From Vibrio cholerae ATCC 14035 (lineage in GTDB: Bacteria > Pseudomonadota > Gammaproteobacteria > Enterobacterales > Vibrionaceae), in contig NZ_KK211326.1 of the NCBI RefSeq assembly GCF_000621645.1, positions 1,807 to 6,967 of the forward strand: a stretch of 5,161 nucleotides of DNA, in the 5' to 3' direction. The notes beneath the pieces were generated by a model. The model searched no databases. It saw only the letters and a program-made list of their open reading frames with translations, and was not told where the DNA came from. A program made the translations under genes and the position numbers. Positions 1,641 through 5,008 of the stretch are shown one piece after another (positions within the stretch are counted from its first letter, which is position 1; the number at the start of each line of letters is the position of its first letter).

Positions 1641-2267
1641 TTGATCTCTGAGTATTTACCGATCACTGTAGTGGTTACATTAATATTATTCTGCACTCGT
1701 GAAATTCTCGATTTAACAAAGAGGTATCGTGATAAAAAACGCATGCTTGCAACTCTTAAGATTGTGGTATCTGAAGAGTTAAAAGACAATTATCATGCGT
1801 TAGATGCTTTATATTCTGTCTTGACCCAAGTAGATAAACTTCTGAAAATTGGTGAAAAGAGAATACCAGTATGGAAGAACATAAAAACTGATCGCTATGG
1901 AAATGATATGGCTCATATCGTTATCGGTGAAAATGGAGAGTATGGTGTGCTTCATATGGCATTCCCAAAGTTTTCAACAAAGCGCTACGAGTCATACATC
2001 AAGGATATAGCGTCTTTAGATCTTCAGTTATATGAAGCTATTACCAAATTCTATAAAGAGCTTCGCTACTGCGAGAAAATTCGTTGCGAAGTTATTGAGT
2101 ATCTAGAAAGGGACAATAATCATATCAACTGGGCTTTTGATTACCGTGTAAACTTTATGCTCGAACGTAAGCCAGAATATGAGTCCTTGTGTCAAAATCT
2201 TCATGAGCTTCTTTCTGGTAAATACATGAAAATAGATCGCAATGAAGTGGTTGAAATCGAAATATAA
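1641..2267 (+). CDS. Hypothetical N-terminally membrane-anchored protein, 208 aa, TTG start
   Basis: Strong RBS AAGAGGA (1628-1634) lies 6 nt before TTG at 1641. Residues 5-19 (YLPITVVVTLILFCT) form a hydrophobic helix followed by a basic patch KRYRDKKR. The rest is predicted helical and rich in charged residues and Tyr. The stop TAA (2265-2267) is inside the attC inverse core. The next in-frame ATG (1743, M35) would remove the TM segment and has no RBS. No family recognised. Confidence 0.75.
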   Translation: MISEYLPITVVVTLILFCTREILDLTKRYRDKKRMLATLKIVVSEELKDNYHALDALYSVLTQVDKLLKIGEKRIPVWKNIKTDRYGNDMAHIVIGENGEYGVLHMAFPKFSTKRYESYIKDIASLDLQLYEAITKFYKELRYCEKIRCEVIEYLERDNNHINWAFDYRVNFMLERKPEYESLCQNLHELLSGKYMKIDRNEVVEIEI

Positions 2268-2390
2268 CAAACGCCTCAAGAGGGACTGTCAACGCGCGGC
2301 GTTTCCAGTCCCATTGAGCCGCGGTGGTTATGGTTGTTGTGTTTGAGTTTAGTGGTAGTGCGTTGCCAGCCCCTTAGGCGGGCGTTAGCC
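2262..2390 (+). repeat. attC site (VCR) no. 5
   Basis: Inverse core ATATAAC (2262-2268) and core GTTAGCC (2384-2390), with a consensus VCR body. Confidence 0.95.
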
Positions 2391-2397
2391 CGCAAAT

Positions 2398-3435
2398 ATG
2401 ATATTACGTCAGTTAAATAGGATAGATATGTCTAGTTTTGATTTTCCTAAGTATCAAGCAAATCAAGAAGTAGGGAACACTGGTGAAGCTTTTTTTGAGC
2501 ATTTTGTAACTAAGGAGTTGGGTTGTATATACCGAAAAGTTCACCGAGAACATGATTTTGGCATCGATGGGTATATTGATATCGTCAATAATGGTGTGGT
2601 GAGTGGACGCTCGGTTGCAGTTCAAATCAAGTGTGGTGATAGCTATATCTCTAAAGTCACAAGCGGTGATATTAAATACTTGGGTGATAATAAGCACTTA
2701 AATTTCCTTATTAATCATAATGTTCCTGTTATTTTGGTTGTGCTTAACAGTGACTGTACTAAAGGGTATTGGGTGGAATTTTCTGTTAACGCAACTAATC
2801 CAAGTAGCAAATCATGGTGGATTGAAATTCCGTTTGAGAATCAGTTAGGCACTTTAGATATGACTAGTCTCTGTGATATCGCTGGAATTGCAGAGGATTA
2901 TTCCGAAGATATCAAAGTATCTTGGGCAATAAATTCTGCCATGGATGAACAGTCTGATATATCTTTTGTTCTTTCTAAGGAAGAAGTTGAAGAGCTTGAT
3001 TTATCGGGGATAAATCAAATGATGGAGCGTTACTTCAGAACGAAAGATTTGCTAATTTCAAATAGAAACAAAACTGTATTTTGGATCTTTGGATATGATG
3101 ATGACTCACGAGAATTATATGAGATTCCAGAAGTAAGAAGATGGTTTAAATTTACCTTAGAACAAGGTGTGCCTTGGTTCTACCTCCTAGATGTAGGTGC
3201 TGACCATATGAGTTTACCTATTAATATGTACTCATGCTGTAATATTTCAGTTAATAAACTAAGTTGTGGTTCAAAGTCAGTAGTTATTTCAAGTGTGTCA
3301 GATATTAATAATTGGGTAGAAGTAAACTTTGAAAATTTGAACCGTTTCGCTGATGAAAAGAAAATACCAGATAATATTTTAAAAGAAGTCTCTGAAAAAG
3401 TAATTACTTCAGTTCACCGTCTGGTTGCTGGCTAA
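2398..3435 (+). CDS. PD-(D/E)xK-like (DUF4365-type) putative nuclease domain fused to an uncharacterised C-terminal domain, 345 aa (335 aa if started at ATG 2428)
   Basis: It is the only long ORF of the largest cassette. The N-terminal ~130 aa carry G29-E30 (GEAFFEHF), D53-F-G-I-D57-G-Y-I-D61 (nt 2554-2580) and V75-Q76-I-K78 (nt 2620-2631). This is the E...D-x-G-I-D...Q-x-K arrangement I associate with DUF4365 and Mrr-like restriction-endonuclease folds. The C-terminal half (~aa 180-345) includes FGYDDDSRELYEIPEVRRWFKFTLEQGVPWFYLL and is unassigned. ATG 2428 has a better RBS (AGGA 2419-2422, 5-nt spacer) than ATG 2398, which has none. The stop TAA (3433-3435) lies in the attC inverse core. 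Confidence 0.8.
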   Translation: MILRQLNRIDMSSFDFPKYQANQEVGNTGEAFFEHFVTKELGCIYRKVHREHDFGIDGYIDIVNNGVVSGRSVAVQIKCGDSYISKVTSGDIKYLGDNKHLNFLINHNVPVILVVLNSDCTKGYWVEFSVNATNPSSKSWWIEIPFENQLGTLDMTSLCDIAGIAEDYSEDIKVSWAINSAMDEQSDISFVLSKEEVEELDLSGINQMMERYFRTKDLLISNRNKTVFWIFGYDDDSRELYEIPEVRRWFKFTLEQGVPWFYLLDVGADHMSLPINMYSCCNISVNKLSCGSKSVVISSVSDINNWVEVNFENLNRFADEKKIPDNILKEVSEKVITSVHRLVAG

Positions 3436-3555
3436 CAAACGGTTCAAGAGGGACAGCCAACGCTTGGCATTTTTACTATGCGTTGGTTTTTGTGGTTACG
3501 GTGTTATGCGGAAGCTTGGTAATGGCGTTGGCTGCCCCTTAACCGGGCGTTATGT
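3430..3555 (+). repeat. attC site no. 6, strongly divergent from VCR consensus
   Basis: Inverse core GGCTAAC (3430-3436) and core GTTATGT (3549-3555). It keeps the TAACAAAC and GGGCGTTA ends and the palindromic architecture, but the arms differ (CGGTT..AACCG; CAGCCAACGC..GCGTTGGCTG) and the central region is unrelated. Confidence 0.9.
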
Positions 3556-4427: not shown

Positions 4428-4550
4428 CAAACGCCTCAAGAGGGACTGTCAACGCGTGGCGTTTCCAGTCCCAATGAGTCGCGGTGGTTTCGGTTGTTGT
4501 GGTTGAGTTTAGTGGTAGTGCGTTGCCAGCCCCTTAGGCGGGCGTTAGGT
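4422..4550 (+). repeat. attC site (VCR) no. 8
   Basis: Inverse core GCCTAAC (4422-4428) and core GTTAGGT (4544-4550), with a consensus VCR body. Confidence 0.95.
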
Positions 4551-4621
4551 GTTCATCAGCTATGTGAACCAAAAGTTGAGCGTGAACGTAAAACCGATTT
4601 TCGAAACTTCGGTTATTTGAG

Positions 4622-4873
4622 ATGGAACTGAATACGGCAATCGAGTCAAGAATTATAGAAATGGCATGGGAAGACCGCACCCCATTCGAAGCAATCAAGC
4701 ATCAATTTGGTCTGAACGAAGCTGAAGTGATTAAGTTTATGCGCAGTCGACTCAAACCTAGTAGTTTTAAATTATGGCGTGGTCGTGTTTCGGGCCGTAA
4801 CACAAAACATGCGAAGTTGCGCAGCTCAGAAATTAGTAGAGGCTACTGCCCAACCCAGTACAAGCATCGCTAA
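4622..4873 (+). CDS. TIGR03643 / DUF2805-like small conserved protein, 83 aa
   Basis: The core RIIEMAWEDRTPFEAIKHQFGLNEAEVIKFMRSRLKPSSFKLWRGRVSGRNTKHAKLR matches my memory of the highly conserved TIGR03643 (DUF2805) family motif (MAWEDRTPFEAI...FGL.E.EVI..MR..LK..SF..WR.RV.GR.TKH..LR). The stop TAA at 4871-4873 lies 9 nt upstream of the attC. Confidence 0.85.
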   Translation: MELNTAIESRIIEMAWEDRTPFEAIKHQFGLNEAEVIKFMRSRLKPSSFKLWRGRVSGRNTKHAKLRSSEISRGYCPTQYKHR

Positions 4874-4882
4874 CTGGCACAC

Positions 4883-5008
4883 ACCTAACAAACTGCTTAA
4901 GAGGGATTCGCAATGCGTGGCATTTTCAGCATGCGGTGGGTTTTGTGATTAAGGCGGCGTGCGGTAGCTTTAGCAGTGCATTGCTCACCCCTTAGCAGGG
5001 CGTTAGGT
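4883..5008 (+). repeat. attC site no. 9, strongly divergent from VCR consensus
   Basis: Inverse core ACCTAAC (4883-4889) and core GTTAGGT (5002-5008). The arms are changed in a compensatory way (CTGCT..AGCAG; GCAATGC..GCATTGC) and the central part is unrelated to VCR. Confidence 0.9.

Follow-up and report, generated by a model that had tools for sequence, protein, structure and literature searches.

What does the largest gene cassette in an integron array of Vibrio cholerae ATCC 14035 encode, and does its product protect the host against phages? The stretch of DNA analysed here (5,161 nucleotides of contig NZ_KK211326.1; hereafter, the window) had been described in a first-pass annotation, made from the sequence alone, as harbouring a stand-alone DUF4365-type nuclease fused to a second domain and acting as a one-gene defence cassette. 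This proposal is supported by profile searches, by the predicted fold and by the match to Divona. The cassette very probably represents the O395 (classical-biotype) allele of Divona, an anti-phage system of the V. cholerae chromosomal integron that consists of a single gene. Divona was known before, having been found and named in a systematic screen of the same integron; a real defence gene had been recognised correctly from raw sequence. The coordinates of all features are collected in Table 1, and residue numbers follow the 345-amino-acid (aa) form of the protein.

Evidence for identity with Divona

The window protein corresponds exactly to VC0395_0873 of V. cholerae O395 and belongs to the same 90% cluster as VC_A0374 of strain N16961, with which it shares 344 of 345 residues, the sole change, G91D, affecting a variable position. 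In the work of Darracq et al. (bioRxiv 10.1101/2024.07.02.601686), 88 N16961 integron cassettes of unknown function were cloned and 16 new defence systems were named. According to the accessible parts of that report, to which all statements taken from it here are limited, Divona is a fusion of DUF4365 and crr6 (PF08847) encoded directly downstream of VCA0373, it defends against vibriophage 24, and the N16961 allele is switched on by relocation to the first integron position (attI). Most of the systems in that screen were described as acquired when the lineages of the 6th and 7th pandemics arose, which agrees with an O395 origin of the window. Divona has been cited as a known system in two later papers. 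The window protein combines an N-terminal DUF4365 domain with a C-terminal Crr6 (PF08847) domain and is nearly identical to the product of the N16961 cassette located by VCA0373.

The nuclease domain and its active site

As predicted in the first-pass annotation, the N-terminal region matches PF14280 (DUF4365) in Pfam, which places this family at aa 28-161 with E=1.4e-37 (129 bits versus a cutoff of 24.3). The best PADLOC match was the Argonaute-associated restriction endonuclease (pAgo-associated, 2e-21), and phmmer against PDB sequences identified DREN-APAZ of SPARDA (8e-5). In the AlphaFold2 model of the Divona protein (predicted local distance difference test, pLDDT, 91.4), the N-terminal part adopts a restriction-endonuclease-like fold which superposes on the solved SPARDA DREN domains 9qcc, 9jt2 and 9jsz (Foldseek E ~2e-9, ~150 aligned columns). 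These comparisons of sequence and model identify the DREN effector of SPARDA as the nearest relative known for the nuclease domain. PHROGs gave no useful matches.

When 41 diverse members of the family were aligned, residues E51, D53, G55, D57, Q76 and K78 proved invariant. The phmmer alignment pairs D53, D57, Q76 and K78 with E37, D41, Q62 and K64 of XauSPARDA, whose nuclease activity is reduced by the substitution E37A and abolished by D41A, Q62A and K64A. Divona possesses the acidic-D-Q-K catalytic set of DUF4365/DREN PD-(D/E)xK nucleases, and the alignment shows the predicted DREN-type active site to be intact. Of the motif residues singled out in the first-pass annotation, D53, D57, Q76 and K78 are those that stood, while E30 is not conserved in the family, in contrast to the neighbouring G29, and was rejected as a catalytic residue. 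The comparison with Shedu, Hachiman and Cap4 made at that time can be kept as an analogy only: profiles for Shedu SduA (DUF4263), Hachiman HamA (DUF1837) and Cap4 were not among the PADLOC and Pfam matches.

The C-terminal Crr6-like domain

The C-terminal half had been considered impossible to place. However, aa 193-265 match Pfam PF08847 (Crr6/DUF1817) with 32.4 bits versus a cutoff of 25, and with 34.2 bits when the domain is searched alone; the NCBI family name already reads 'DUF4365 and DUF1817 domain-containing protein'. AlphaFold2 predicted a confident alpha/beta fold for the domain on its own (pLDDT 92.6, predicted template modelling score, pTM, 0.84). The net charge of the domain is -10 in the window protein and -7.8 in the family median. 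Its consensus hallmark is GYDxDPRELYEIPEVRxWF, represented here by the segment G232-YDDDSRELYEIPEVRRW-F250, in which R238 and E239 are invariant and D236, I243 and E245 nearly so. A Foldseek search of the domain against BFVD returned nothing beyond a borderline match (E=1.2e-3) to an uncharacterised protein of Marseillevirus, and a profile search against PDB sequences yielded chance matches only.

A profile of this domain detected 2,742 representative clusters (50% identity) at E <= 1e-3 among 1.84 billion representatives. Stand-alone Crr6-like proteins of ~170 aa exist, for instance in Rhodocyclaceae, and non-photosynthetic bacteria harbour relatives of both kinds, stand-alone and fused. Among the fusions, the Crr6-like domain is joined to a NucS_C endonuclease domain (P0364), to a region with a weak, below-cutoff NERD match (P0392, E = 0.0012), to N-terminal regions with a 'D...IQAKD' (QxK) motif which Pfam does not recognise (L075 and L079), to ankyrin repeats (P0361) or to HAMP-PAS. 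In several proteins of these sister architectures, the Pfam Crr6 match covers nearly the whole profile. The NucS_C, NERD-match and ankyrin fusions are candidate sister defence architectures. PADLOC found no matches on the alternative nuclease-Crr6 fusion, and a search with a stand-alone Crr6-like protein returned only further stand-alone 171-aa proteins and no new fusions.

A conserved stand-alone Crr6-like protein of 171 aa was observed in non-photosynthetic Rhodocyclaceae (L076 9965-11572, from a Sulfuritalea metagenome-assembled genome (MAG), as well as L078 and L080). Directly 3' of its gene lies one coding for a 351-aa protein that ends in a cysteine-rich CPCGSGKKFKKCC motif, SEC-C-like by eye, and inspection of the same region, again by eye, revealed HipA-, VapC- and AbiEii-like open reading frames (ORFs) and a large methyltransferase.

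Family distribution and gene context

A distribution scan combining a pattern and tblastn, with one genome per species, detected relatives in Campylobacterota, Cyanobacteria, Desulfobacterota, Firmicutes and Myxococcota, and further ones in Bacteroidota, Verrucomicrobiota, Planctomycetota, Acidobacteriota and Betaproteobacteria. On plasmids and phages the Divona family is rare: one full-length copy was detected on a plasmid, and one match, a partial one, in a phage. DUF4365 is also found with other partners, namely with APAZ in SPARDA and with a 1,200-aa region in Caulobacter (L073).

It had been claimed that the nuclease has no partner gene. This was borne out in eight sampled homologue neighbourhoods, across which no conserved neighbour or partner gene was found, and since the neighbours are not conserved Divona is regarded as a one-gene system. 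In several of these cases the gene lies in an integron array or in a region where toxin-antitoxin (TA), restriction-modification, reverse-transcriptase, OLD-ATPase or transposase genes abound. The V. parahaemolyticus homologue (P0126; L081/L082) resides in an integron array, and that of a metagenome contig (P0016; L089) in an integron-like array outside Vibrio, which has short attC-like palindromes as repeats and, close by, a tyrosine recombinase. In a Helicobacteraceae MAG (P0013; L083) the gene adjoins a reverse transcriptase and a DNA methylase, in Luteibacter (P0112; L085) an OLD-family ATPase and insertion sequence (IS) elements, and in two more neighbourhoods (P0058 and P0022; L084, L088) TA genes and transposases.

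Some further observations concern single relatives. The metagenome contig (L089 1-9000) is of low GC content, with GTT-ending palindromic repeats between small same-strand genes and an IS91-type transposase, and the Divona homologue carried by its array is 44% identical. In Caulobacter hibisci (L073 9926-13948), DUF4365 stands first in a 1,340-aa open frame whose long C-terminal part is rich in repeats, an alternative wiring of this nuclease. Some V. cholerae strains contain a second Divona-family protein (P0010) with only 53% identity, a divergence which suggests that this second copy was acquired independently. In Aeromonas salmonicida subsp. pectinolytica (PMC5756416), a transposon insertion and an inversion have broken a homologue 51% identical to VC_A0374 into two fragments that lie far apart.

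Proposed mechanism and alternative explanations

Apparently without a promoter of its own, Divona is probably silent deep in the array and expressed once recombination sets the cassette beside the integron promoter, as has been shown in the literature for the N16961 allele. We propose that, in uninfected cells, the C-terminal domain would hold the nuclease inactive. On infection, it would answer a cue, in all likelihood through contact with a protein that is encoded or altered by the phage, and the cue would free or assemble the nuclease domains, which might then cut DNA without sequence specificity. Phage replication would be stopped, and the price would be growth arrest of the infected cell. 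That the nuclease is kept inactive by the C-terminal domain until infection, with an abortive-type outcome thereafter, is argued by analogy and put forward tentatively, as a serious possibility to which we would give slightly less weight than to its opposite. In SPARDA, the isolated DREN domain is inactive and a negatively charged tail locks DREN closed, while activation needs filament assembly and is followed by non-specific degradation of dsDNA. The acidity of the C-terminal domain of Divona, and its presence on at least one further restriction-fold nuclease, suit a module for regulation or sensing better than one for DNA recognition. CRR6 proteins are assembly factors of the NADH dehydrogenase-like (NDH) complex, a role which suggests protein binding. 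As regards the outcome of infection, high multiplicity of infection (MOI) led to growth arrest or lysis with most of the V. cholerae-active systems in the screen by Darracq et al. (bioRxiv 10.1101/2024.07.02.601686). Taken as a whole, Divona identity, expression, protein and proposed mechanism together are likely to form the best explanation for this locus.

Several points weigh against this account. The statement that Divona is VCA0374 was not found in the accessible text of Darracq et al., whose supplement contains neither name; we strongly infer the equation of Divona with VC_A0374 from architecture and position. The published assays were made with the N16961 allele, from which the window allele differs by G91D. 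The Divona literature, as far as accessible, reports neither a nuclease activity nor a catalytic mutant, nor does it give a trigger or an oligomeric state, and arrest or lysis at high MOI is given there for the group, without Divona being singled out. The role of the C-terminal domain as sensor or autoinhibitor is itself inferred by analogy, and Foldseek against PDB found no significant neighbour of this domain (best E=0.45). In addition, one of the eight sampled neighbourhoods is a housekeeping context (P0117; L087) and another is neutral (P0060; L086).

The main rival is a Type IV-like or solitary restriction system, in which the nuclease would always be competent, the C-terminal domain would recognise some trait of the DNA of phage 24, for example a modification, phage DNA would be cut directly and the cell would survive. 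Such a system would agree with the weak similarity to Mrr_cat (E=0.019) and with the described protection, which in the accessible text is against phage 24 only. However, the Mrr_cat match remains under the Pfam cutoff (15.5 versus 21), which leaves the protein outside the Mrr-type Type IV enzymes, and the C-terminal domain is strongly acidic family-wide and gave no DNA-binding fold match by Foldseek in PDB or BFVD. Moreover, NCBIfam names CRR6 proteins as NdhI subunit maturation factors, that is, the related domain is attributed to protein maturation and not to DNA binding, and arrest or lysis at high MOI was seen for most systems of the same screen. We consider restriction improbable.

Far less probable still is that the cassette serves the integron array as a toxin-like element for addiction or stabilisation, whose anti-phage effect would be a by-product of overexpression toxicity. 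TA cassettes are described as stabilising integron arrays (bioRxiv 10.1101/2024.07.02.601686), and in an excision-capture library described in a later paper few cassettes were recovered as poorly as that of Divona, but the authors of that library attribute this low recovery to cassette size, TA systems were not depleted in the same library and an antitoxin gene was not found in the cassette. Once moved to attI, where the native Pc promoter drives it, the cassette is described as giving phage-specific protection, and it was apparently also reported that uninfected cells expressing the system from Pc or pBAD, with phage-specific protection, grow normally. The remaining explanation, a housekeeping CRR6-type assembly factor for an NDH-like complex with a degenerate nuclease-like domain, could account for the Pfam Crr6 match above cutoff, but it can be regarded as effectively refuted: the score for the NCBIfam equivalog CRR6_slr1097 (NF038024) is 31.8 bits against a cutoff of 125, which places the protein outside this family, the nuclease catalytic residues are invariant, the gene is accessory and cassette-borne, and the stand-alone and fused relatives mentioned above live in non-photosynthetic bacteria.

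Gene start, cassette boundaries and attC site

The sole long ORF in the cassette extends from 2398 to 3435 on the + strand. Translation almost certainly begins at M11 (2428), which yields a product of 335 aa, because AGGA is located 5 nt upstream, homologues are ~335 aa long and the upstream ATG is absent from V. parahaemolyticus. In the copy of this species the leader is kept apart from that ATG (2398), which reads ATT and is out of frame, with frame-breaking indels; the start of the 345-aa form was rejected as not conserved there. The annotated 345-aa forms (VC0395_0873, VC_A0374) begin 10 codons early, and newer NCBI records show the 335-aa form. The stop codon TAA of the Divona gene sits within the R'' box of attC. 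A promoter-like site on the + strand upstream of the Divona start was looked for and none was seen.

The window consists of an integron cassette array with nine attC sites, whose common ends are TAACAAA...GGGCGTTA. Cassette limits were set by cutting at the conserved G|TTA recombination point (GGGCG|TTA cores), which gave eight complete cassettes of 453, 530, 452, 767, 1165, 535, 460 and 458 bp. The Divona cassette qualifies as an integron gene cassette, being bounded by attC sites with conserved R''/R' cores and a bottom strand that folds as a hairpin; its 5' boundary is the recombination point G2384|T2385 in the attC of the preceding cassette. It is the largest in the window, ~2.5 times the median, and the description of it as about twice the size of its neighbours agrees with the 452-767 bp of the seven other complete cassettes. 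Its AT-richness was also confirmed, with a GC content of 36.6% (35.0% in the body) versus 41.3% in the window, but this trait is not unique, as the cassette bodies 636-1045 and 1618-2264 likewise have ~35% GC. Since these two cassettes, which are flanked by V. cholerae repeats (VCRs), are just as AT-rich, AT-richness alone was rejected as a mark of foreign origin.

The attC which closes the Divona cassette is not a VCR, as had been noticed before, although its limits are 3433-3555 rather than 3430-3555. Its identity to the VCRs of the window is 66-70%, whereas these share 81-95% among themselves, and its bottom strand forms the expected imperfect attC hairpin (-19.5 kcal/mol, z = -2.5). Compared to V. 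parahaemolyticus attCs, it is 77% identical overall and 84% in the central part. The same gene, 93% identical in nucleotides, forms a cassette in the integron array of a V. parahaemolyticus genome. The presence of this gene in that array, together with the 77% identity of the attCs, supports an exchange of the cassette with another Vibrio cassette pool, and the import from a different integron pool suggested in the first-pass annotation is corroborated to this extent.

Table 1. Coordinates in the window of the Divona cassette, its gene and the associated sites.
Feature	Position	Strand	Remarks
VCR-type attC of preceding cassette	2265..2390	+	83-94% identical to the window's other VCRs
Complete integron cassette, single gene	2385..3549	+	1165 bp, GGGCG|TTA cores; one long + strand ORF
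Leader, 43 nt	2385..2427	+	AGGA at 2419-2422, 5 nt before ATG
Divona gene, probable O395 allele VC0395_0873	2428..3435	+	335 aa from M11; exact match to V. cholerae records
DUF4365/DREN-type PD-(D/E)xK nuclease domain	2479..2880	+	aa 28-161; PF14280, PADLOC, PDB, Foldseek
Predicted catalytic core D53-F-G-I-D57 ... Q76-I-K78	2554..2631	+	invariant in 41/41 family members
Acidic Crr6/DUF1817-like C-terminal domain	2902..3432	+	aa 169-345; predicted alpha/beta fold
Signature motif G232-YDDDSRELYEIPEVRRW-F250	3091..3147	+	also in stand-alone and other fused Crr6-like proteins
Non-VCR attC of Divona cassette	3433..3555	+	recombination point G3549|T3550

A second non-VCR attC, at 4886-5008, closes a DUF2805 cassette (4545-5002); it shows 57-60% identity to the VCRs and 78-81% to V. 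parahaemolyticus attCs. Because this site is V. parahaemolyticus-like as well, more than one cassette of the window looks imported from such a pool. With respect to the other cassettes, PADLOC gave no matches on the neighbouring ones, and Rfam found no RNA families in the window. The cassette at 1166-1617, with normal VCRs on both sides, appears 'gene-less', its + strand ORFs being all <=42 aa, and no known RNA was detected in it by Rfam. The second-largest cassette contains an ORF (1641-2267) for a 208-aa protein with a hydrophobic N-terminus, for which neither Pfam nor PADLOC matches were found.

Implications and comparison with known systems

The corrected start, the mapping of residues to the SPARDA catalytic site and the V. 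parahaemolyticus-like attC are new here, as are the wide phyletic spread of the family and the observation that other nucleases carry a Crr6-like domain too. The residues for mutation are now pinpointed, namely D53, D57, Q76 and K78, plus R238/E239 of the C-terminal motif. These results make the mechanism of Divona more directly testable, and an acidic autoinhibitory or sensor domain on other nucleases is a testable idea too. In its widest form, that the Crr6-like domain is a widespread, previously unrecognised infection-sensing or autoinhibitory module over DUF4365, NucS_C and possibly NERD-like effectors, we regard this idea as speculative and rather unlikely; if it were true, the cyanobacterial and plant NDH assembly factor CRR6 would share ancestry with an immune regulatory domain.

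The N16961 allele of Divona has the same DUF4365 + Crr6 architecture as the window protein, the 344/345 identity mentioned above and the same setting in a V. cholerae chromosomal integron cassette; it is the El Tor form, whereas the window sequence, with G91D, is the classical O395 form of the 6th pandemic. With the SPARDA DREN (DUF4365) effector (PDB 9qcc, 9jt2, 9jsz, 9qbq), a non-specific dsDNA endonuclease which is inactive until assembled, Divona has in common the nuclease fold and family and the acidic-D-Q-K set, although the first catalytic residue is predicted to be Asp (D53) in Divona and is Glu (E37) in SPARDA. A SPARDA system, with APAZ and an adjacent short Argonaute gene, was rejected as classification, as the matches end at ~aa 165 and the cassette has one gene. 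Unlike SPARDA, Divona is without APAZ and an Argonaute partner and carries the Crr6-like domain in the place of APAZ, and guide-RNA-dependent activation is impossible. CRR6 / Slr1097 (PF08847, NF038024) is related to the C-terminal domain by domain-level homology above the Pfam cutoff, but Divona differs from it in its sub-cutoff equivalog score, its nuclease fusion, its non-photosynthetic hosts and its context of defence instead of assembly. Finally, while Shedu SduA, Cap4 and Hachiman HamA belong to different nuclease subfamilies, have different partners and share no profile similarity with Divona in PADLOC, a common logic would connect them, that of a PD-(D/E)xK effector restrained by an attached or partner module.

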